From: Folioceros fuciformis
Lineage: Eukaryota
Direction of reading: 5' to 3'
DNA: 20,000 nucleotides
NCBI GenBank assembly: GCA_049999805.1
Contig: JBNGIO010006191.1
Span: 209,578 to 229,577 of the forward strand
How positions within the stretch are numbered: the first letter of the stretch is position 1; each line of letters opens with the position of its first letter. The notes below the pieces were generated by a model. That model made no database searches and was not told where the DNA came from. It saw only the letters and a program-made list of their open reading frames with translations. A program made the translations under genes and the position numbers. Of the stretch, positions 3,183 to 20,000 are shown one piece after another.

Positions 3183-5240
3183 GTGATCGGGATGGGCGTA
3201 GTAAAGGTTGGAACCGTGAGCATGTTGTATCAGGAAGGGGAGCTTCATGAGGCCTTCGGAGCCCTGGAATCTCTGGCGCAGAGACTCTGCTATTTCTCAG
3301 TCTCTGTTTTGCACTGTCCTAAAACAGAATTTGGTTATGGGGCGACATATGCACAACTTCAGTGTCAAACTTGGGTACAATTCGATTGCATCCAGGGCGA
3401 ACTGCATGTATATAAGTACATTCAGGTAGGGTATAGGAGGCCATGGATGTGTTCAGCAGGTAGGCAAAGCAGATGTTTTCGCCTTTCTTCCAGCATCTCT
3501 GCATACGCTAAACATGGGAAACCTAATGAGGCAGTGCGTTGGTCCGGAGTGAAAGTGAAGGCTATTGCTTACGTCTTTGTCGCTGCTCTTTCAGCTTGTG
3601 CATCTTCTGCTGACTTGGAATCTGGCAAGGAAGTGCACTGTGATGCAGTGCAGGGTGGCATTTCTCCCGGCTTGTTTGCTGGCGCCAGCCTGGTGGACAT
3701 ACATGCAAAATGTGGTGAACTGAAACATGCACGCCTGGGTTTTCATAGCATGGGCACAAAGAATATGGTGACATGGAGTGCCCTGATAGCTCGGTATGCA
3801 AACTGCAGTGACTGAATAATGCACGTGAGGTTTTTCACAGTATAACCGGACAGGACGTGGTGACGTTGCTCATCTTTTGGCAGCAATTCTTGGCAAACAT
3901 CGGTCTGAATCTTATTTCTGGTTTCATACAGAAGGGCAGGCGCTGCTCTCACTGATTGTTGAATGAGGTCTGCTGGATGGCAAACTGGTGAGCAACCGCT
4001 TGGTGGACACTTATACAGAATGTGGTGAACTGAACTGTTCGTTGTCCGCGTAAGGTGTTGTGGCTTAGATGGGTATACACAGTAAGGACTCGGTCAAGAG
4101 GCGCTTGACTGCATGGACAACTGGACCTCAATTTGGCTGAAAATTTTACTTTCGCTTGCCTGATGGCGCTGATGACTCTCAAAAGGTCAAACAGCTGCAC
4201 TTGCAGACTAACGCAAGAGGACTGCTGGATAACACACTGGTGGGCATGCAAGCAAAATGTGGTCAACTGATGATGCACGCCAGATTTTTAACAGCTCGGC
4301 CACACACCTCGGCAAAGCTCCTTTTTTCTTAACAACTTTCCCCCGAAACCATGGAAGAAAAGGGGCATTGAAGTGAAAAAAAGTGGCACCCATGAATCCT
4401 AGTTTTTGAGAAAAATGACTTTTAGATATTTTTTTAAGAGAAAAATAATTTTCTATTCCATATGCTAGAAAATATATCTCTTCTGGGTATTATCACATAA
4501 GTTATATCACATAAGTTTTTATTTCTAAGTAATAAAAAACAATTTTCATTAAAACAATTTTAAATCCCCAAGTAAAAATTATTTGCCAAGGTCTGCAATC
4601 AATGGTGCCCTAGAGAACGGCAGGCATCTGCACTCACAAATTGTGGAACGAGGACTGCTGGATAACATAGTGTTGTGCACCTAGCTGGTGGCCATATCTG
4701 CAACACGTGGTGAACTGCAAGAGGCACGCCAGGTGCTTGACAGCAAGTTCCCTGACATCTGGGTATGGTGCTTGCGATGGTGGCCAGATACTAGAGCTCA
4801 AGCTTGTTTTGAGAAGATTTCTTTTGTCGCTAGTACACAGCCTGCTCTTTCTCCTTTGAGTAGCAGCTAGTCATGATGGACTAGTCCACCGTCTGATTCC
4901 ATCGCTGAACGGTGATGCATCCTACTATTGAGCACTACACCGGCGTGATCTTCTTGATCGAAGGGGCCATTTAGATGGGGCAAAGACGATGCTATTATCA
5001 TGTCAAGGTACAGGGGCATTGACGCCTTCGTTGAATGCTTGCCAAAGTTACAGAAAAAGAGGGGGGCGATGTGGTGTCTTGAAAGCAGTGATAGACTGGA
5101 ACGTCCTGGTGTGGTTGTGAAGGCTTTGTGGGGCTGGTTCCCCAGGCACGCACATGTGCTGATGGCAAATTCGTATGCGGACGCGGGTAGGGGGGCCGAT
5201 GTAGACAGGACTCAGACACAGAAAAGTGGCAGGAGGTAGC
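3183..5240 (+). pseudogene. Degraded PLS-class pentatricopeptide repeat (PPR) gene with an E domain
   Basis: PPR motifs ISAYAKHGKPNEA, VFVAALSACASSADLESGKEVH and SLVDIHAKCGELKHARLGF..NMVTWSALIARYA. Further fragments are LVDTYTECGEL (~4000), RGELQEARQVLD (~4705), EHYTGV../DLLDRRGHLDGA (~4930-4985) and the E-domain-like HVLMANSYADAGRGADVDR (~5150-5210). Many stops and frameshifts. Confidence 0.8.
4303..4595. mobile_element. Candidate non-autonomous TIR element (MITE-like), AT-rich, inserted in the PPR pseudogene
   Basis: CACACCTCGGCAAA (4303-4316) and TTTGCCAAGGTCTG (4582-4595) are inverted with 12/14 match. They bound an abruptly AT-rich 293-bp block flanked by PPR remnants. No long TSD; only CA on both sides. 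Confidence 0.55.
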
Positions 5241-5857: not shown

Positions 5858-6765
5858 TCACGGCAAAGCTTCCGGAAACAAGAGCTTCAACCTGGATTTG
5901 AGAGAGTCTTCAATCGTGGTCGGTTCGGCCATAGCTCCGTTTCCGACGTCGCCACAAGCAAGCACTTTCGGAATAGGACTAATTATCACAACGCCAAGTT
6001 CTTCAAGAACCTTCAAATGCGGCTTGGTGAAAGGACTATCCCACATCAACGTGTTCATAGCTGGAGCGACAAAGAACGGCTTTGAAAAATCCCAAGCTCG
6101 CACGATGCAAGTTACCAAATTGTCACAAATGCCATTGGCAACCTGCAAAAGGACAGAAACAGTGAGCTAATTGCACTGCACCATCTCGGCAGTATGAACC
6201 TGTGTAGACAAATGAAAGTAGACGGACTGCGACCTACACAAGGGTGACCTGCACGAAGTCCTGATGTAGGTCAACTTCTCAGTATACCAGACACAAGTCT
6301 AGGATGTATGAGAACGAGACCGAAACACTCTTGCACATTAGGAGGGGTCAAAGTTAGAGTAGATCTCAAATCTTCGACAGTGACAAAAATGTGCGTGACC
6401 TACGACATAAATCAAGACGCCAATGGGCAATCATGGGATGTTCTGACCTTAGCAAGCGTGTTGGCAGAAAGAGGGGCAATCACTAAGGCATCGGCCCATC
6501 GCCTTAACTCAATATGAAGGACAGTGTCCCCTTTCTTCGTCCAGCTTGACCACTCGTGTTCATCGGTATACAATGCCACACCGGGTGACAGAGATCTGGA
6601 GTCGATGAAGTGCAACGCCGACTTGGTGACTACAACGGCTACCTCCGCCCACTGCGACACGCCGACCGCAAGCGCAGTGAGCTTTATGGCTGCCACGCTT
6701 CCTGTCGCCGCAACGATGACGCGGGGCTTCCTCGGCTTGGACTCGACACCGCCACCGGACGCCAT
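5858..6765 (-). CDS. HAL3: Phosphopantothenoylcysteine decarboxylase (HAL3/CoaC flavoprotein), 200 aa; exons 6765-6448 and 6142-5858
   Basis: KPRVIVAATGSVAAIK, VLHIELRRWADALVIAPLSANTLAK|VANGICDNLVTCIVRAWDFSKPFFVAPAMNTLMW and LACGDVGNGAMAEP. Catalytic His and Cys are present. Phase-0 GT-AG intron 6447-6143. Confidence 0.95.
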
Positions 6766-6811
6766 ACGGCCACAAAACCTAATGTCCACAGCAGCCCATA
6801 CGACGGTGTCC

Positions 6812-7239
6812 TCGGGCGTCAGCCACAGTCCGCCCAGCAGCAGGGACCGTACACTGCGCTCTTCTGGCACGGAGCTTGTCCTGCGGCTTCCTGCTTAATC
6901 CAGTTTGCTGCCCGCTTCACCTCTTGTTGCACGGTTGAGCAAAACATTAGTTGCCAAGACACGCAAGGGGCCGTTCGAGAACATCCACAAGCGGGATGTC
7001 ACAGACCACTTGCCTACAGCAAGCGGCTAGCTGATACTTCAGCACATTGCACTCTCCAAAGAAATTAGACACGGAATGTTCGGGACACCTCTTGAACTGC
7101 TTGACGCTCTGCACAGGAAGCAACTTGAAGACTCCACTAATCGCATCCCAACTGCTGCACAAGCGAGACATCCTTGATCGCGGAGTTCACTTACGTTCGG
7201 GCACACAGGATCCTGGCGGAAAGCCAGCTCTGGCAGGTT
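6812..7239 (-). pseudogene. CMC2: Pseudogenized copy of CMC2 (COX assembly twin-Cx9C protein)
   Basis: Collinear with the intact copy at 10295-10724. The start ATG is replaced by AAC (7239). Exon 2 reads SVKQFKRCPEHSVSNFFGECNVLKYQLAACCRQV. The intron-2 acceptor CAG has become CAA (6927-6928), there is a 2-nt deletion near 6900, and the stop TGA has become CGA (6812-6814). Confidence 0.88.
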
Positions 7240-7761
7240 TTTGCCCTAGAGTGCCACCAACGTGCTAGTGGGTACTTCAAAATATGGAACGAGTGATCGG
7301 AGTGCCCTATAACCACAAACGTCACCGGACCCGGGCCCAACGACTAGCCCCCACCGGGAACAACAGGTCAAATGTTAACATGTACATCTTGCTTTGTTTT
7401 CTTGATGATAACAGAAACTCAACTTCTGATCTCGTCCTCCGCTTCACATAGAATACTTAAATTAGTTGTACTTGGGGGTTGATTTAGGGTGATTGCCGGT
7501 CTTCGTGAGTGATAGAAGGAAGAGCAACAAGAAGTTGACGATGGTGGCACCATGGGAGGCAAAGAAGATCCGCGCATACTAGGCAAACTACGAATTTAGG
7601 TGTAACGCATATCTCTATCGTCGGACAAGATCTCTGACATACCAAAGAATTTTTGCAGATCTTGTCCAGCAATGGAGAGCAGCCAATCACAAGACCATGG
7701 AAACTGTATCTAATACAAAATCCACATTATGGGATATCGCCTTATTCACCTCAATATGCAT

Positions 7762-9113
7762 TCAAGCCGCTGTTACGGAGCTTTTCCGTTTTCTTCTGAA
7801 GTACACGGTCCAAGAGTATATTTCCAGTACCATAGCAATGCCCGCTAGTATCGCCAACACTGCAACATACACTTTCCTTCTGCTGCTTTGGTCAAGGCCG
7901 ACGTGTGCAAAGAGATTGAAGCCAAGAAATATGTTGGTGGTTGCCAGAAGAATGGCGAGGTAGCCAGCTGTATGGTGGTAAAGATTCCACAAATAACGAA
8001 CTTTGTGCTCTTTGTGTGGCCGCAGGACAAGTGCCAGCACCTATCATCAGTAGCAAACACAGCGCAAATGTCAGTTCATCTCTGCAAGAAACTATCATTT
8101 TTTAGTTCATGCAAACACTAGTCTTAGAGGAGAGAGAAGCACCTGAAGTGTAGATAGCGCGAAGACAACTGTACCAATAGCCCCGTGAGTGATACGTTTG
8201 TCATCTCGGTTGTCCACTGCGTATCGCAACCTGATTCCGACAGCCCAGCCTGCCAATCCGAGGATGTACCCCGACACTTGGAAGGTTATGTGAGCATAGA
8301 ACCAGATAGGGTCAAGGGACTTGAAGGGCCTAGCGTATCTGGCGACAATCACTCCAACAGGTAGAAGGAAGCCCCAGGCCACGGCGTTCAGGATTGCATG
8401 ATTCTGTACGAAATGGGAGCACAGAGTTTAGTCTGCAGTAAAGTATAGCAGATCCACACGGAGAAGCATAACGCACAGGTACCCACAAATTTGAGCTGCC
8501 GGTAAGGATAAACTCCTGGAGGGGCAACTCCAGGACCCCTGCTTGTCAGGGAAATGGTGGAGAAGTAGTTCTCGTAATCGTTGCCATTATCATGTGCCAC
8601 AGGCACGCCACCTCTAACAGGTCCAGAATTCCACAGCAGATTCAAGGACTCCGCACTGTACAAAACGGAAGCGAAGATCTTCACGGTATCCGTGCCGAAC
8701 TCTGCAGAGTAGTTAAGAGCGGTGACAAGTCGCTCCCCGGGAGTGGTGAGCGGCTTACCATCGTTCTGGCTGCGGCCCATTTGGAAGGGCTTCACAACCG
8801 TCAGCCCAGCAACATCTCGCCAAGCTAGAAAGGCAGCGGAACCCGACATCCTGGCGGGGTGAAGGGGATTGATCCCCCATCCTGACCACCGCTGGGTGGT
8901 TGCCGTAGTGTGAGCAGTGTAGGCACCAAGCAGTGTACCGTCATCATGGCTCCACGCGAAGGAAGCCCCGTTGGGTAGGCTCAGGCAAGCACCCAAATTC
9001 AAAACTGACCCATTGATCTCGAAAGTCTGGCTACACTGCTGCGAGTAAACCAAACCCTGCAAAATGCACAACGCAGCAGCTGAACACCACAGCACAATCA
9101 AGGAGGATGTCAT
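7762..9113 (-). CDS. DOMON plus cytochrome b561 domain protein (CYBDOM/AIR12 family), 388 aa; exons 9113-8487, 8403-8143 and 8040-7762
   Basis: N-terminal signal peptide and DOMON motif WSGWGINP..RMSGSAAFLA. Cytochrome b561 motifs HAILNAVAWGFLLPVGVIVARY, WFYAHITFQVSGY, THGAIG and LRP..EHKVRYLWNLYHHTAGY. Both introns are GT-AG and phase 0. Confidence 0.93.
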
Positions 9114-9349
9114 CGTGAAATTTGAAAAGGATCTGACGCTCTAACTGTCACCACTACCTTCACCTGATGAGCTCGGCCCAGGTCCTATTAGTCTAGTACG
9201 CGATTCGCGAAATCCAACTGGCCCTTTCTCGGAAGCCCGGCTTGCTCTTGCCTCGAATGTTCGGGCACTAGTCGGCTCCTGCAGTAATTCGGCACCGTAC
9301 AAAATAGCTAAGGTACATATGGTGGGAGCCGTAGGGTCTGTACTGTTGC

Positions 9350-10248
9350 AGGTAGCAAAAGTCGATCTCGAGTTGAGTACATATGTGTGGTTGGTTCGGA
9401 CATTGCTCCATTACCGACTTCTCCAAGACAAGAATTTTGGAAGAGGATTGATGATGATAGCATCAAGTTCTTCAAGACCCTCAAAGACGGCTTCTAAAGA
9501 TGGACTTATCCCACGTCAACGTGTTCTGCGAAGGGGCAGCCAAAAACTGGTCTCGAATAATCCAAGCTCACACGCTGCAGGTACCAAGTTGTCACAGATG
9601 CCATTTGCACCCTACACAAGAACAGAAGCCGTGAGAACGTTGGACAACACTGGGGACATGAATACGCTAGTGGAACGTGTACGGAGTGTGGCCTACACGA
9701 AGTTCTCAATGTAGGTTTACATCGTAAACCCGAGACAATTCTAACAGGGCTAGCGCTCTGTGAGAACGATACCAAAATAGTCAGGCACATGATCAGGAGT
9801 TGAGGTAGGCGTGGATCGAAATCGTCGAGGGTGACAAAAATGTGCGTGATTTCTGACATCCAAACCTCAGTACGCAATCACAGGGCGCTCTCACCTTGGA
9901 GAACGCGTTGTGAGAAAGAGGGGCAATGTTAAAGGCATCAGCCCATCGCCATCGTTCGATATCAAGCACATTGTCCCATTCTCCTCCACCTTGACCACTC
10001 CTCTTATCCGTGGACAATCCAACACCAAGTGACAGGCGGCAGCTGAACCGGTGTACAATCCAACAAAAGGGTGAGTGACAAAGGGCTAGAGTCCATGAAG
10101 TGCAACTCAGATTTGGTGAGGCTACCTCCGCCCCACTGGGACGTGCCGATAGCAAGCGCAGTGAGCTTTATGGCAGCCAACCTTGCAGTAGCCGCCACGA
10201 TGGCGGGAGACTCCTTGGCTCGGAGTCGGAACCGCCACCAGAAGTCAT
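9350..10248 (-). pseudogene. HAL3: Pseudogenized copy of HAL3/PPC decarboxylase
   Basis: ATG at 10248 (MTSGGGSDSEPR vs MASGGGVESKPR), then a 1-nt frameshift near 10212 followed by IVAATARLAAIKLTALAIG. More indels and an insertion at ~10020-10075. RRWADAFNIAPLSHNAFSK ends at a conserved donor (9894). Exon 2 starts at 9611 (ANGICDNLV) and is frameshifted, with the ACGD motif destroyed. The intron is also homologous (GTGACAAAAATGTGCGTGA in both copies). Confidence 0.9.
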
Positions 10249-10294
10249 GCGGCCGCAAAACCTAGTCCCCGCAACACTGCATGACAAAGTGTCC

Positions 10295-10724
10295 TCAGGA
10301 ATCAGCCACGGTTTGCCTAGCGGCAGGCACCGCAACTTGCGCTCGTCTGGCACGGAGCCGTTCCTGCGACTTCTTGCTTGCTTCAAGGTTTGCTGCACGA
10401 TTCACCTCTTTCTGCACGGGAGAGCAAAAACTGAGCTGCCATAGCACGCGAGGCGCCACTCAACAAATCCACAAGCGGGATGTCACAAACCTCTTGCCGG
10501 AAGCAAGCATCCAGCTGATACTTCAGCAAATTGCACTCGCCAAAGAATTTGGCCACGGGATGCTCGTCATGACACCTTCTGAACTGCTTGATGATCTGCA
10601 CATGCAATTGGGAAACTTCACACACTGCATCCCAAGCGCTGCACAGACAAGTCATCCCCTGGCAAAGCAGTTCGCTTACGTCCGAGCAACTAGGATGCTT
10701 GTGCAAAACCAGCTGTGGATGCAT
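10295..10724 (-). CDS. CMC2: COX assembly mitochondrial protein 2 homolog (Cmc1-family twin-Cx9C), 88 aa; exons 10724-10680, 10595-10491 and 10411-10295
   Basis: The spliced product is MHPQLVLHKHPSCSD|IIKQFRRCHDEHPVAKFFGECNLLKYQLDACFRQE|KEVNRAANLEASKKSQERLRARR...ADS*. It has two Cx9C motifs plus the MHP.L..H and KFFG.CN signatures. Both introns are canonical and phase 0. Confidence 0.92.
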
Positions 10725-10991
10725 GACGTCGCTAACAGTTGGCCCTAGATTGGCACGCGGTCTCTACCACACCATCGGCTCCCGAGGCAAAGGTGAAAGT
10801 AGAGACTGCACCGTGAAATACATCTGCGTTTTAAATCCACGAATAAATGGTCCGTAACGAAATACATACGTTTTGTATTATGTGTAGTGCCAATGTTGTC
10901 GTCCTCTATATGGTCCGTGACGAAATACTTACTGAAAAAGAAAATCGTGTAGAGGAAACATTGTCACTAATGTGCCTCCCACCTCCCATCA

Positions 10992-11075: not shown

Positions 11076-11618
11076 TTCCTCATAACTTTCCATGACTTTT
11101 TAATTATTTAACTTAAAAATCTAATCCCACCAGAAATCTATGCACCTCGATAGTTGTCACTACGCCGGGTTTCATGTTACCTCCTGCTGCCACTCTCAAG
11201 GTCTGGATCCTGTCTGCATCAGCCCACCTGCTTGCATCTGGGCACCACCTAACATGAGTAACTTTATCCCCGTCGTCGTCGTCACTAATTGATAAAAGAA
11301 TTAGGGAGCTTTAGTGCGTGAATGAGGTTCTACCCCTTCCCAAATCTTAGTCCCTTTGTGTAGACGGTACTAGGCATCTCACGAATCAGACCGCTTGTTA
11401 AGCATTCCTACCACGGGTTGTTTTGATTATTCAAAATTTCAATTGTTTTTCGAAACTCTAGTCAGTATTCACAACAGCGTTACACAAAGGAGTACAATCC
11501 GTGTTTGAAAAGACAGCTTGAATAGTACCACTTTCAAGAATCACTATTGGCTAGGTGCAGCTAGATCCAACGAGTGTGTGATGTGACTCTCCATGTTTTA
11601 TTCGTGCCTCTAGCCCAC

Positions 11619-14278
11619 TCATCCTCGCCTGCTCCTCCTGCTTCCTCTACTGGACCGAGTATTGCTACCTCTCACGACATCAGGTGCGGGAATTGCCAGT
11701 ACAGTGCCATCGCGGATGTCTTCAAGGTTGGAGTTTTCTATCGTCTTCTGTGCCTCTATGTACACCATGCAGTCTCTCACCTGCGAACAAATGGCGTTGT
11801 AGTGAGGGGCCATTCATTCTGCTCTTCGTGCCTACTAGTAAATTCATAGCTCAATCACGAGTACCGAACCTGTTCTTCTAGGTCAGATATCCGCTTGTCT
11901 TTCTCCAAAACAGCTGCTTGGTGCCTGTCAAAGAAAAACGCCGGTCTCAGACCTATCGGACGTTGTAAGCATGGATCCAGCAGAGGTGTGGGGAATGAGC
12001 ACCACTATGACGCACCTTTCTTCCACCTCTTTCAACTTCCGCTGCCATATTGTTTGATTTTCGGCTAGTGATTTGTTCACCTGCAAAACGGAAGGAACTC
12101 ATCACGACATGCCAATAGACTGCTTTCCCTTTCAACGGAAAGACCAGATTCTGCAGTACCTGTTGCAGGAATTTCAATTCCTTCTCCTTCGACTCTATCT
12201 TGCCATCCATCTTTTCTTGTAGCTTTTGCAGCCTCACCCTGAAGGATTTCTCCACGGCCTCAGAGATGCGCTGTTCTGTCTCCACTAGCATTCCCTCGTA
12301 GTGCTGGAAACATGCAATGAACAAACACTGGTGGGCAATTGGGCCTAACTGCAGACAGACAACCTTGCAGACAGTACACTTGAGAGCCATAAGGCCCAGG
12401 CATAGGGCCTCAATTGAAAACCAAATGTTACCTGTCTCTGACTTTCAAGCTGGGTAGTCAACAGGTGATTGTATTCATACGAGATCTGCATCAGAGAGAC
12501 AAATCACTCCTTGTTTGCTGGACTTGGGATTTTGCGTTGAAGAGCAAATTGCAGAGGTCAGTGCACATATGACCTACTGCTTCCAGTTTACTGTCATGGA
12601 CCGCTTCCATCATGTCTGACCCCCTGCTACATTCACAGCTATCCTCACTGCCTTCCCTGCAAGGCGCTGGAAGCTCTACAAGCTTTCCATCAGTCTTGGA
12701 TTGTATCAACCGATGGACATACCCATCCCCCACATAGTCCCACACTCGCTGTGTCTCGAGTTCTAGTGAATAGCAATGGTTGGTGAGCTTGAAATGATTC
12801 TCTGCATGCCCTGCTGCATATCTGCAAGCTCAACAACGAGTACTTTCATTCAACTTCCTCAAGTGCATTTGGCAGAGAAACCTTCACTGTCAATGAGCTC
12901 TTTGTACCTCCCACAGCCAACAAACCCGCAAATGACACAAATCCAAAGGCTTTCGGATGTCCCACAAACAGAGCAAGTCGAATTCTGAGAAGTTTGGCAG
13001 TATCGGCATACCTGCAAGACCAACGGTTAGGTGTTCAACTTCGCACACCATTCAAGCAAAAAGAGAATGTTCCGGTCAAAGAACTTACTGGACATGACGA
13101 ATCTGTCCACTTCGAGATACATGTACTGTGGAATGAGTGGTTGCAAACAGTGGTAAGGATTCCACTGATGTGCTGATCGAGCCTCTCTGTTTACAAAAAA
13201 GGAGAGTGTTAGAAACTTTCAATCCTAACATCACAAAGTGGGTACTGTTAGTGGACTACTTCAAAGAATTTTACAAATCTTGCAAACCAAAGAGCACACA
13301 GTGGTGACAAGGAGAACATACCAAGGCAGACAGGGCAATTCGGGAGCTCTGTCAGACCCGCTGGAGGAGTTGAGGCTTGCTCTTCAGAATCAGTGTACTG
13401 TACATCTGCAGTGTAGACGACATGACAGACCTCTTCCTGTCACAGAAATCATGGTTAATTCATCCGTGTCATTTGAAGTCCTTAGCAAGAAGGACTGGAC
13501 AACAGAAGAAAAGACCTCCACACTATTGAGGAAACCACTTGCGCTTGTGCGTTTGCTAATGGAAGCTGGGTCGAAAAACCCCGTGGTACCAAATTACACC
13601 AGAAGACAGACAAGATGCTTGCTCCGACAGGAAATAAATACCTCCAAAGAAGAAAACTTTTTCCCATTGTAGTGTTGGTAGAAAGCGTCAGCTGAAGCCA
13701 CAGAGTCGAATGTCATGAGAACACAAAATCTGTCCTGGACGCCATCCGGCCTGAAGAAGGCAGAAGAATAAGAACGAAGGCTTGCAAAGGAAAGACCGCG
13801 CAACAAAGGAAGCGGACTTGGTCCAAACCTGACCATCCTCATCTTGGAGATGTTCTGCAAAAATGATCCCGTGAATTGACAGAAATCGGATCCGGTCATG
13901 TGGTTCGGAACCGCCAGCACACACAGGTGCTCCCTACGACCCTCCTGCACAAAAATTCATCTCTCCAAAACTCAGCTTACGCGTCAACGCCTGGAAACAA
14001 CTTCCTCCCGCACATCAACGGACAAGTCTCACCGGAAGCTTATCCACGGAATCGGGATCTATCTTGGTGTTCCGGAACAGGTGCACCACTCCCCGGGTGG
14101 CTTCCACCCTGGGATTCCCGGAGGAAAATCTGAGCGTGGTAATGTCCCCAGAAGTGCCTTCCTCCTCCACAGCTACCCCGCTGGGCGATGCTTCGGAATT
14201 CTGCGCCATATCCTGAGATGTCATTCCTGACTCGCACTCCAGCACCCGATCCAACGCGTACACCTTCACAATAAACAT
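11619..14278 (-). CDS. BRIZ: BRAP2-RING-ZnF-UBP E3 ubiquitin ligase (BRIZ/BRAP family), 503 aa; 12 exons: 14278-14033, 13944-13829, 13750-13642, 13436-13322, 13186-13089, 13011-12908, 12821-12578, 12485-12432, 12303-12160, 12080-12016, 11924-11870, 11780-11619
   Basis: FSSGNPRVEATRGVVHLFR, LCVLAVPNHMT.SDFCQF and [54 protein letters not shown]. ZnF-UBP: LWICVICGFVGCGRY..HCYSLELETQRVWDYVGDGYVHRL. C-terminal coiled coil. All introns are GT-AG and the exons sum to 1512 nt in frame. Confidence 0.93.
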
Positions 14279-14533: not shown

Positions 14534-14647
14534 GCATTTCCAAGTTGGCATGGGGTTAAAGCTCGTCTGCGAGAGTGGGCCCTGTGTTGTTTAAAAACGC
14601 GTTGCAGTTGTAATCCGTGCCTTCCCAGGAGTCTCGTTCCGAACGAC
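14534..14647. repeat. Non-coding segment duplicated at 16427-16849, where it is split by a TIR element
   Basis: GCATTTCCAAGTTGG..TTAAAGCTCGTCTGCG..GTGGG.CCTG..TGTTTAAAAACGCGTTGCAGTTGT..CTTCCC..GTCT.GTT..GAACGAC aligns collinearly with 16427-16471 plus 16783-16849. Both copies are preceded by TAGGGTTT (telo-box; 14493 and 16397). Confidence 0.75.
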
Positions 14648-15303
14648 TCGTCTTCCCTTTCGTTTGGCCTTCCCGTTTGCGGCACTGCACGATCTGGTTT
14701 CCAGCGGCGGGGGGGACAGCTCCGCCTGCGGCAGGAGGGCCTGGGCCTAGCCATCAATTTTTTGTCTTCGTGTTTTGTTTAGTGGAAGGACTGGATCGAA
14801 TTGGAAGAAGTTTGGTGGCGTCATTCAGACCTAGACCACCTACTGACCTGCGTTAGCCCCGTCGTCCTACTTCCACCTTGACGTGTGTGTTTGTACCTGG
14901 ACAATCCTAACTCGAGGCTGACACAAGCTGGAAGGATGATCGTTATGGGTTATCCAATGTAAGGTGCGTTTGCTTAAAAATCGTTTCCAAATCTTCTGTT
15001 TAATCTTCAGATTCAGGATTCGAGAATGCAAGTCGCTTCCGTCGGCCCGGAAGGAAAGATGATTAAAACCCAATACCAAGGGATTTCATGGTATACCTGC
15101 AGTACCCTCTCCAAAGCATCTTCTCATTCAAGTGCTGGTCCAAGCGCAGCAGACACTACGCACTTATCTATATACCTGAGACATTTTCACTGCGCAAGCA
15201 CCACCTCGTAGCAAGTGGTCAATCAAGTGACTGCAACCAGCTATGACGTAATCCAAACAATGGTCAGTGATGTAAGCAGGACACTCGTCTCGTGTTTTGC
15301 AGC

Positions 15304-16471: not shown

Positions 16472-16776
16472 TATGGCATACCAAAGGGGACACTCTCTCA
16501 CTATGCATTTTTTAATGCTTTCTCATGGGGTATCGTCGTTTTGGGCTGGATGCCGGGCGGCCTTAGGGCAGAAAGCCCAAACACCCCTGTAACCATAGTG
16601 GGGTGGGGGCGCGCCTCTGCTTGGGGGCAAGACATGCTTGCAAAGTGCAAGCATGTCCGGTGTCCGGTTTGGTTTTGGCCCTCCAACTCGCGTACGCGCC
16701 AAAGGGGACGAATAACAGATGTGTTTGTAAAAATATCCTAGAGAGAGAGGGGGCGTGTCCCCTTTGGTATGCCATA
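16472..16776. mobile_element. Non-autonomous DNA transposon, 305 bp, with perfect 22-bp TIRs and a 6-bp TSD
   Basis: TATGGCATACCAAAGGGGACAC (16472-16493) and its exact reverse complement (16755-16776). TGTGGG directly flanks both ends (16466-16471 and 16777-16782). Confidence 0.88.
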
Positions 16777-17197: not shown

Positions 17198-18397
17198 ATG
17201 ATTAGTGAGCTGGCTGCGATGGGAAGCAGGGGAGGTGAAGCCTCCACCAGCAGGGCGAGCGGGGGGAAGGATGCAGGGCAGGGGCAGGGGCAGGGGCAGT
17301 GGCAGGGGAAGGGGAAGGGTAAGGGTAAGGGTAAGGGGAAAGGAAAGGGAAAGGGAAAGGAGAAGGAAGAGGGCTCCGAGAAGAAGCTGCAGGTGGAGCA
17401 GTCGAGGAAGGAGCGTCGCTTGCTTAGGGCTCGGTACCGCGATGTGAAGAGCACGATTGCAGGGGAGAAGGAGGAGTTGGGGAAGGTGGATTCGGTGAAG
17501 TTCGCGTCTTTCTACCATACGATCCAGGATTTGCACCACCTGGTGCAGAAACCGCGGGAACAGGTATCGGACGCGGAAGCTTTGCTGGACATGACAAACA
17601 CGTTGATGGACACGGCGCGCGGGGCGAGGCGCAGTCACGGAATCTCCCCATCCGATTTCGTGGATGCTTTGATCAACAAGTTCGTTCGAAGGAACAGGAG
17701 GGATGGGCAAGATGTGGACATCGACTGGGGCGCTTTGGGGCTGGAAGCTTGCCTGGTGCTGCCGGAGGCACCGGGGGTGTGCACCATGGTAGGGCCGATG
17801 GAGAGCGAGCCCAAGCCGAGGAGAAGCTGCGCTCCCCGAGGCCGGAAGGAGAGGCTGGGCCGGATGACCCAGCCCGAAGAGGTGGAGGAAGCCTCGGCAT
17901 CGGGCGAGAGGAAGGAAACAGACGCAAACATGGAGGTCATGTTTAGCAAGCTGCGCAGTCTAAGGCGCGTGCAAATGGAGGCCCTGGTGCTGAACAGGGG
18001 TTCGTTCTCCCAGACCGTGGAGAATATCTTCTCCTTGTCCTTCCTGATTCGAGACGGGCGGGCGGAAATCATCATCGAGGACGACGGCAGCAACAGCATC
18101 GTGCCGAGGAATGCTCCTTCCAACGAGCAGGGAGTTCAGTGTGGGGAAACATCTCAATTCGTGTTCAGTGTAGGGTTCAAGGACTGGGAGATGATGAAGC
18201 AGAAGGTGGCAAACGGCGCCGAAGTGATGCCAAATCGGAGCGGAAACAATGTCCAACCTCCTTCCCACCAGGCCTCTGTCACTCCTGTCAGAATAACCTC
18301 CAGGAACAGAGCCAGGGGGAACGCCTCGCAGGAAGAGGTGCAATTGGAGAGGCAGCATCACGGGAAGCGCAGGAAGCTTACACTCCAGGATAGCTAA
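17198..18397 (+). CDS. NSE4: Non-structural maintenance of chromosomes element 4 (SMC5/6 kleisin), intronless; the start may be the ATG at 17219
   Basis: ERRLLRARYR, VQKPREQVSDAEALLD, GISPSDFVDALINKF, IDWGALG, PGVCTMVGPM, ETDANMEVMF..L, LVLNRGSFSQTVENIFSLSFLIRDGRAEI, FVF...FKDWEMMK and TPVRITSRNR all match plant NSE4. Confidence 0.93.
   Translation: MISELAAMGSRGGEASTSRASGGKDAGQGQGQGQWQGKGKGKGKGKGKGKGKGKEKEEGSEKKLQVEQSRKERRLLRARYRDVKSTIAGEKEELGKVDSVKFASFYHTIQDLHHLVQKPREQVSDAEALLDMTNTLMDTARGARRSHGISPSDFVDALINKFVRRNRRDGQDVDIDWGALGLEACLVLPEAPGVCTMVGPMESEPKPRRSCAPRGRKERLGRMTQPEEVEEASASGERKETDANMEVMFSKLRSLRRVQMEALVLNRGSFSQTVENIFSLSFLIRDGRAEIIIEDDGSNSIVPRNAPSNEQGVQCGETSQFVFSVGFKDWEMMKQKVANGAEVMPNRSGNNVQPPSHQASVTPVRITSRNRARGNASQEEVQLERQHHGKRRKLTLQDS
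17274..17360 (+). repeat. Coding hexanucleotide microsatellite encoding (QG)n(KG)n
   Basis: CAGGGG, AAGGGG, AAGGGT and AAAGGG repeats in the NSE4 N-terminus. Confidence 0.85.
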
Positions 18398-18682: not shown

Positions 18683-20000
18683 TCAAAGTCGCGCGTCCGG
18701 CACGACGCGGACGATGCCTCGGTATGCGTCCAGGGTGAGGAAGTCGTCGAGCTTGTCCTTGAGGCACTGGGCGACAAAGAGCTGAGCAGCCTGGTGGTAG
18801 TGGCCGCGGCGGAACTGGGCAGGGCCCACCTCGCGGTGCACTCTCTCGAGCTCTTCCTCCACAACACGCCCGAAGAGCTGCCTGGTGACGCGCACGGGGA
18901 CTGGCTCGCCGTTGAGCACTGCGCCGTAGTGAATCCACTGCCAGTTCTGCACCCGGCTGATCTCGGCCGTGGCCGCATCCTCCATGAGATTGTAGAGCGG
19001 GACGGAGCCCGTCCCTGCCAGCCACGCCGCCAGATACTGGATCCCGACACGAGTGTTGAGACGCAGCCCCTCCAGGGACCGCTTTCCCTTGGGCATCTCC
19101 AGCAGATCCTCCTGCGTCACCTTCACATCATCTCTACGCACCCCGAGCTGGTTCTCCCCCGGCATGTTCTGGTCGAACACTTCCAGCACCAGCGGGATGA
19201 GCCCCGGGTGCGCCGCCCAGGTGCCGTCGTGCCCGGCCCGGACCTCGCGAAGCTTGTCCGCCCTCACCAGGGCCAGAGCCGCGTCGTTGGCCGCCTTGTC
19301 GTCCTTGATGGGGATCTGGGCAGCCTGTGGTTAAGCAAGCTTGGGTCAATGTTGGACGATGAAGGAGATGCAAGCACTCGAGGGTGAATGAGAAGGAGAT
19401 GGAGAACACCACACGCAGAGCAGCAGCACCCACCATGCCTCCCATGGCCTGCACGCCGCGCTCGTGGCACGTCTTGATGAGGAGCTCGGTGTAGTTTCTG
19501 AGGAAGCGCTGCGTCATGCCCACCTGGATGCGGTCAGGGAGGAGCCGGTCGGGGTGGTTGCGGAACGTCTTGACGAAGGAGAAGATGTAGTCCCAGCGGC
19601 CGCAGTTGAGGCCGGCGGAGTGATCCCGCAGCTCGAACAGGATCTCGTGCATCTGGAACACGGCTGGGAGCGTTTCTATGAGGACGGTGGCGCGGATGGA
19701 GCCTCTCGGAGCGCCCACACCCAGCTCCGCGGCCTCGAACACTGCGTTCCAGATGGCTGCCTCCCGGGAATGCTCCATCTTGGGGAGGTAGAAGAAGGGG
19801 CCGCTGCCGCCGTGCTTGCTGCGGAAAGCGCCGTGGTTGTGGTAGAAGTAGAGGCCGAAATCGACGAGGGCCGCCACGGCGGGCTGGCCGTCCACCTCCA
19901 CATGCGCCTCGCGGAGGTGCCACCCCCGGGGGCGCACCATGAGCACGGCGGTCACGTCATTCAGCTTGTAGCTTCTGTTGCGCTCGGGGTCGTGGTGAGT
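18683..20000 (-). CDS. MLS: Glyoxysomal malate synthase, 5'-partial; exons >20000-19434 and 19324-18683
   Basis: [78 protein letters not shown] and [20 protein letters not shown]. The C-terminus -ARL* is a PTS1-type signal. GT-AG intron 19433-19325. Confidence 0.97.

Follow-up and report, generated by a model that had tools for sequence, protein, structure and literature searches.

The locus analysed here raises the question of whether a land-plant nuclear mRNA carries, or once carried, two proteins. Green algae have many such mRNAs and land plants few, and a gene pair in the 20,000-nt stretch of DNA under study (the window) bears on their loss, a reading frame for CMC2, a small gene of mitochondrial assembly, being followed at a distance of 46 nt by one for HAL3, a gene of coenzyme A synthesis. 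A preliminary description had put this arrangement forward as a candidate plant dicistronic mRNA, which our analysis bears out as history and not as a present-day mRNA. In both copies of a duplicated unit, CMC2, HAL3 and the spacer between them are spanned by RNA contigs, the gene order is shared by many green algae, a moss and, probably, also a liverwort, and the pair in Auxenochlorella is a bicistron defined by Iso-Seq, whereas each copy in the window retains one intact ORF. On the best reading, land plants inherited an ancient bicistron of the green lineage, which a tandem duplication with reciprocal loss then divided in the genome studied here.

Organization of the duplicated unit and its spacers

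All genes of the duplicated unit lie on the minus strand. The unit, about 1.4 kb long, occurs as a tandem duplicate whose copies (A and B) are 3.48 kb apart and 75% identical, and a DOMON-type (DUF568) gene (7364..9113, minus), recognized by Pfam and by spliced RNA contigs, lies between the copies and outside the unit. As had been described, both spacers are 46 nt long and on the same strand (6766-6811 in copy A and 10249-10294 in copy B, minus); the HAL3 ATG is located at their 3′ ends (6765 and 10248, respectively), and the two align without gaps at 31 of 46 letters (67%). It had also been stated that the spacer follows a CMC2 stop in both copies, but a genuine stop 46 nt before the ATG was found in copy B only, where this ATG opens a pseudogene, while the corresponding position in copy A reads CGA (6814-6812). 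The copies stem from one duplication and are not independent observations. The lack of AATAAA and TATA-like motifs in the spacers, noted earlier, is uninformative because both motifs are absent from 98.7% of the 46-nt stretches sampled from the window.

Each spacer contains a 6-codon mini-ORF (6799-6779 in copy A and 10282-10262 in copy B) that is in the CMC2 frame and ends 13 nt before the HAL3 ATG. The two mini-ORFs show three synonymous differences, a degree of conservation not beyond chance given the 67% identity of the spacers, and the element could be involved in reinitiation or could have arisen by chance. We also considered it as the tail of an ancestral CMC2 separated from HAL3 by a 13-nt gap, which was dropped since a moss CMC2 is likewise 88 aa long and fits the TGA as the old stop.

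Reciprocal inactivation of CMC2 and HAL3

In copy B, CMC2 (10724-10295, minus) is a three-exon gene that indeed encodes the 88 aa described earlier, with exon 1 at 10680..10724 (ATG at 10724, 15 codons), exon 2 at 10491..10595 (35 codons) and exon 3 at 10295..10411 (ending in TGA), both introns being spliced in RNA contigs (joints 10595/10680 and 10411/10491). The protein scored 32.7 bits against Pfam PF08583 (Cmc1-like; cut-off 22) and has twin CX9C cysteines (13/23 and 36/46) within exons 1 and 2, and its start codon has G at −3 and C at +4. The assignment made here is to the Cmc1-like family; the name CMC2 (not CMC1) is taken from the preliminary description and from a label in PMC11892635. 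HAL3 of copy B (9340..10248, minus, the low end being approximate) is a transcribed pseudogene with frameshifts and an early stop, exon 1 having six frame-breaking indels and a stop after 26 codons. RNA contigs revealed that its ancestral intron (9894-9612) is still spliced, as is a new intron (10181-10043).

In copy A it is HAL3 (6765-5858, minus) that is intact, consisting of exon 1 (6448..6765) and exon 2 (5858..6142), with a joint at 6140/6446. Its 200-aa product has the PF02441 (Flavoprotein) fold with conserved His, PAMN and Cys motifs, which we take to be characteristic of HAL3 / PPC decarboxylase, and exon 1 shares 67-74% identity with the top single-domain plant relatives. The accompanying CMC2 (6812..7239, minus) is a pseudogene with a Cmc1 score of 17.7 bits, below the cut-off. 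Besides the lost stop, AAC is in place of the start codon (7239-7237), the intron-2 acceptor has been lost (it ends CAA), and exon 3 carries a 2-nt deletion. It was also noticed that intron 1 of this dead CMC2 (7194-7109, minus) still has GTAAGT and GTGCAG ends although it seems to be retained in the RNA contig, and that a minor alternative donor in the HAL3 intron (6143-6237, minus; depth 5.1) would yield a truncated product of 117 aa.

Because some unusual residues of the copy A HAL3 (5858-6765) are common to the copy B pseudogene, the acceleration of HAL3 likely began before the duplication. In a quick tree, a method that gave no finer placement, the window HAL3 fell among streptophytes, on a long branch that belonged to neither the moss nor the liverwort clade. 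No other intact CMC2 or HAL3 was found in the same genome (87 Mb in 7,240 contigs; searches giving lower bounds). A weak Cmc1 match elsewhere in it (L004, 19.2 bits, below the cut-off) turned out to be a different Cys-rich ORF.

The two copies have been inactivated reciprocally, in opposite genes. The window and the contigs of the RNA run agree letter for letter where listed, and the lesions are therefore not assembly errors. Since each copy has only one intact ORF, the present locus, judged from its sequence, can make no two-protein mRNA. It is hardly conceivable that a functional mRNA of this kind is produced here today: RNA does span both frames in both copies, but each copy has a broken ORF, the HAL3 protein was not restored by any of the three splice forms modelled for copy B, and the identity of window and contigs where listed speaks for the lesions being real.

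RNA cover across both reading frames

A single run (X1) covers the stretch. It is not recorded as RNA and was treated as such because its contigs contain 11 listed joints with CT..AC ends, corresponding to GT-AG introns on the minus strand; two further runs, X2 and X3, gave matches of only about 35 nt apiece and were uninformative. In copy A, one gap-free contig of 809 nt (7254-6446) extends over HAL3 exon 1, the spacer and all of the dead CMC2, whose old introns are retained, and its depth was 17.3, compared with 17.2 for the contig of HAL3 exon 2. Bin arithmetic indicated no cover at 7255-7356, the bin mean being 7.84 versus 7.86 computed for cover ending at 7254; because of this fit, the cover of copy A is not genomic smear. 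In copy B, the bin containing the spacer (10162-10348) had a mean of 61.2 and was the deepest copy B bin in the RNA contigs. A spliced CMC2 contig (56.6) running on to about 10182 would give 50.5 for this bin, whereas one ending at the stop would give 16.3. Bridging of the spacer and the 5′ end of the cover in copy B were deduced from bin means, 8 of the 37 contig pieces being listed individually, and this 5′ end was estimated at 10743..10754 (minus), 20-30 nt before the CMC2 ATG. The RNA cover of both copies begins at a homologous CTAGGGC motif just upstream of CMC2, located at 7249 in copy A (5′ end of the contig within 7244..7254, at 7254) and at 10748 in copy B. Single contigs carrying both ORFs had been suggested as a check on the pair; RNA contigs do span both frames in each copy of the window, and no land-plant transcript with both ORFs intact was seen. 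As a separate observation, copy B RNA continues past the dead HAL3 to 9163 (region 9055-9612, minus), and a minor joint (9055/9163, depth 5.4) skips the ATG of the DOMON-type gene (9113), a possible read-through into a third ORF.

Because RNA covers both frames in both copies from homologous starts, the unit was likely one transcript before it was duplicated. A single promoter upstream of CMC2 would have produced one mRNA, on which CMC2 would have been translated from the first AUG and HAL3 reached by leaky scanning, as in algae, and/or by reinitiation. After the duplication, copy A would have lost its CMC2 start, the dead CMC2 likely being now the 5′ leader of HAL3, and in copy B the dead HAL3 is likely carried as the 3′ trailer of CMC2. 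The old CMC2 promoter still appears to drive each copy, and the unit would have been split in nature with both halves apparently remaining under its control. If the second cistron worked poorly, a duplicate without the CMC2 start would have been useful, a speculation that fits copy A. We consider it likely that this tandem duplication, with CMC2 kept in one copy and HAL3 in the other, represents the remains of an ancient bicistronic unit split into two single-protein genes.

Alternatively, the two genes of land plants may still be neighbours but be transcribed as separate units that overlap, the HAL3 start lying within CMC2, with the duplication merely shedding redundant copies. Short-read contigs from one run reveal neither strand nor start site nor whether one molecule is involved, and would merge two overlapping RNAs. 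Moreover, a copy A HAL3 mRNA starting at 7254 and left unspliced would have a leader of 489 nt with six upstream AUGs, one of which opens a 74-codon frame in good context; such a leader would be expected to hinder translation, which hints at inner start sites. Overlapping units would also agree with the absence of AUG depletion from the CMC2 of the window and the moss (see below), and with the joint by which copy B RNA appears to run into the next gene, as read-through may be general in a compact genome. Nevertheless, the dead CMC2 of copy A is still covered by RNA from the old start region at the depth of HAL3 exon 2, the dead HAL3 of copy B is still transcribed and spliced, and the algal orthologue is listed as exclusively bicistronic (PMC11892635). 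We regard separate units as unlikely and retain the ancestral single transcript as the preferred reading.

Conservation of the CMC2-HAL3 order

Alignment with HAL3 retrieved 80 metagenome loci, the best 80 of 518 found in 36/64 parts scanned. Many of these loci were matched by the CMC2 queries of the window and of Riccia (E ~1e-12 to 1e-20), and with a profile made from those matches CMC2 was detected upstream of HAL3 on the same strand, always in this orientation, in 28 of the 80, a count that includes L073, scored weakly (10.4 bits) and with its contig ending within the region. In L027, the CMC2 tail lies at the contig edge. With the unspliced CMC2 ORF as the query, no homologues were retrieved, as the in-frame intron breaks the words, and the two HAL3 loci found on viral contigs had no CMC2. 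The gaps between CMC2 and HAL3, measured in 19 loci of which many are near-duplicates, were −4, −1, 1, 5, 11, 13, 22, 24, 40, 52, 53, 82 and 107 nt. The CMC2-HAL3 order with a short gap was thereby found in Mamiellophyceae, other algae and a moss, with both ORFs intact and colinear at loci such as L016, whose protein is identical to XP_001417205.1 of Ostreococcus lucimarinus, and the moss-like L068. The latter has a three-exon CMC2 of 88 aa, with the intron positions of the window, 107 nt upstream of HAL3, and it groups together with L073 among mosses (support 98). It was also noticed that the CMC2 stop and the HAL3 start overlap (TGATG or ATGA), as in bacterial coupled genes, in L041, L048-L050 (near 4001 in L048) and L022 (3995-3998).

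In the quick tree, 27 of the 28 CMC2-bearing loci fell into one weakly supported group (87) together with named plants, and outside this group CMC2 was present in 1 of 42 loci. The members of the group in which CMC2 was not detected were L036/L037, L058, L059 and six angiosperm-like loci. CMC2 was not found in the 4 kb upstream of the identical HAL3 genes of the alga-like L036 and L037, nor in the 304-3,017 nt upstream of HAL3 in the six angiosperm-like loci, three of which have little upstream DNA; L058 and L059 have too little upstream DNA for a judgement. The pair can be traced from Ostreococcus through trebouxiophytes to a moss and probably a liverwort, and it appears unlinked in the angiosperm-like loci seen.

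For the liverwort, the predicted Riccia fluitans model KAL2622620.1 (385 aa) contains both domains fused in the same order. It is the only one of 14 candidate long proteins with a CMC2 part, and no second fusion was found among 383 fetched proteins (HMMER of representatives and cluster look-ups). The model is most simply explained as a mis-joined adjacent pair, the tight arrangement probably being present in this liverwort, and it would then illustrate how such loci get mis-annotated as fusions. The same model could instead be taken to reflect alternative splicing, in which a 3′ splice site shortly before the HAL3 ATG would allow CMC2 exons to be left out or joined on, resulting in a HAL3 mRNA with a short leader or in a CMC2-HAL3 fusion. 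It joins both domains in frame, and both window copies have an acceptor-like TAG/GTTT 13 nt ahead of the ATG; in the moss-like L068 such a site is found 42 nt before the ATG, preceded by a pyrimidine tract and in frame with HAL3. However, none of the 11 listed X1 joints, from contigs that drop rare forms, falls at 10262 or 6779, the site in the window lacks a pyrimidine tract and does not share a frame with the CMC2 donors, and a fusion was seen in only 1 of the 383 proteins. Alternative splicing is thus a very unlikely account of the pair, and we keep to an ancestral bicistron.

Start codons and translation of HAL3

Nine distinct Mamiellophyceae-type CMC2 ORFs, which are related and not independent of each other, contained 2 out-of-frame AUGs versus about 16 expected from synonymous shuffles, and both of these lie in the HAL3 frame. 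As far as sequence can tell, this depletion is the published signature of leaky scanning, and leaky scanning is likely in the algae. No depletion was observed in copy B (2 versus 2.3 expected), the moss (3 versus 2.3) or L015 (2 versus 2.3), and in copy B one further AUG lies in the spacer, upstream of ORF 2. Because the CMC2 genes of the window and the moss show no AUG depletion, HAL3 of land plants would have to be reached by reinitiation, weaker scanning-through, inner starts or alternative splicing. With regard to the features by which bicistrons are recognized, copy B of the window has a short gap (46 nt) and a leader estimated to be short; few AUGs before ORF 2 were found in the Mamiellophyceae-type loci and not in the window or the moss. 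Two intact colinear ORFs are absent from the window, where each copy has one dead ORF, and we infer them for the ancestor of its unit.

Comparison with published bicistrons

The pair had been thought undescribed, which is incorrect for green algae: CMC2/COAC1 is a row of Dataset S2B of Dueñas et al. 2025 (PMC11892635; Datasets S1B, S2B and S5). There it is among 43 Auxenochlorella loci, defined by Iso-Seq, whose ORFs occur exclusively on one transcript. The pair of Auxenochlorella protothecoides (UTEX250_A10.26400/26395) is listed with a leader of 37 nt, an ORF 1 of 276 nt, a gap of 2 nt and 0 AUG before ORF 2; five other trebouxiophytes have it in colinear form, supported by long reads in Chlorella sorokiniana, and the row has no entry for Chlamydomonas. 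That survey was confined to trebouxiophytes and Chlamydomonas, and its in vivo tests of leaky scanning were made on other loci (PMC11892635). Seven supplement files of Gallaher et al. 2021 (PMC7896298) contained no match to the pair. A literature search of main texts, few of them from subscription journals, found no main text with both CMC2 and COAC1 and no report of the pair in land plants or Mamiellophyceae, or of a split of this kind. The pair is already known as a bicistron in trebouxiophyte algae, and new are its occurrence in Mamiellophyceae and land plants and its division in this genome through duplication and the loss of opposite genes.

Like the window, Auxenochlorella has a Cmc1-like gene followed by a PPC decarboxylase gene in the same order and on the same strand, with a short gap and a short leader. 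In the alga, both ORFs are intact and no AUG occurs before ORF 2 across the 2-nt gap, whereas the window is from a streptophyte, has a gap of 46 nt and AUGs that are not depleted, and its unit is duplicated with one dead ORF per copy. The pair also resembles CDC26-TTM3, named in PMC11892635 as a bicistron common to land plants and algae, in that one mRNA encodes first a small functional protein and then a larger enzyme, an arrangement kept from green algae through to land plants. CDC26-TTM3 consists of other genes, is kept in Arabidopsis and has had translation of both ORFs shown (via PMC11892635), whereas the six angiosperm-like loci showed no CMC2 upstream of HAL3 and CMC2-HAL3 is known here from sequence and RNA contigs.

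On balance we lean towards CMC2-HAL3 being a second bicistron, after CDC26-TTM3, to descend from the chlorophyte-streptophyte ancestor and still to be translated as one mRNA in mosses and liverworts. The genome studied here would then show the pair on its way out, through tandem duplication with reciprocal loss, a route by which the genes may also have become unlinked in flowering plants.

Similar courses have been described elsewhere. The Drosophila gene monkey king reportedly underwent fission by duplication and complementary degeneration, which split the domains of one protein. Duplicates of groES/groEL in cyanobacteria are described as a case of duplication and complementary degeneration in a bacterial operon (PMC5381637). 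As in the window, duplication was followed by loss of opposite parts, and the copies jointly keep the ancestral functions. The unit split here differs from one protein and from a bacterial operon in that it was likely a eukaryotic nuclear bicistron.

Other features of the window

An LRR-like ORF of 765 codons (74-2371, plus) has an internal duplication 1,521 nt apart. It is followed by a decayed PPR gene with stops and frameshifts (3190-5240, plus), towards which the HAL3 RNA runs from the opposite strand. Genes with short introns are located at 11600-14220 (BRAP2-like, minus) and at 18683-20000 (malate synthase, minus). A 31-nt inverted repeat (16472-16776) with arms 243 nt apart is possibly a small transposon, and related sequence occurs near 14560-14700. 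An Nse4-like gene (Smc5/6 kleisin; 17198-18397, plus) consists of a single ORF of 399 codons with a GK-repeat N-terminus.
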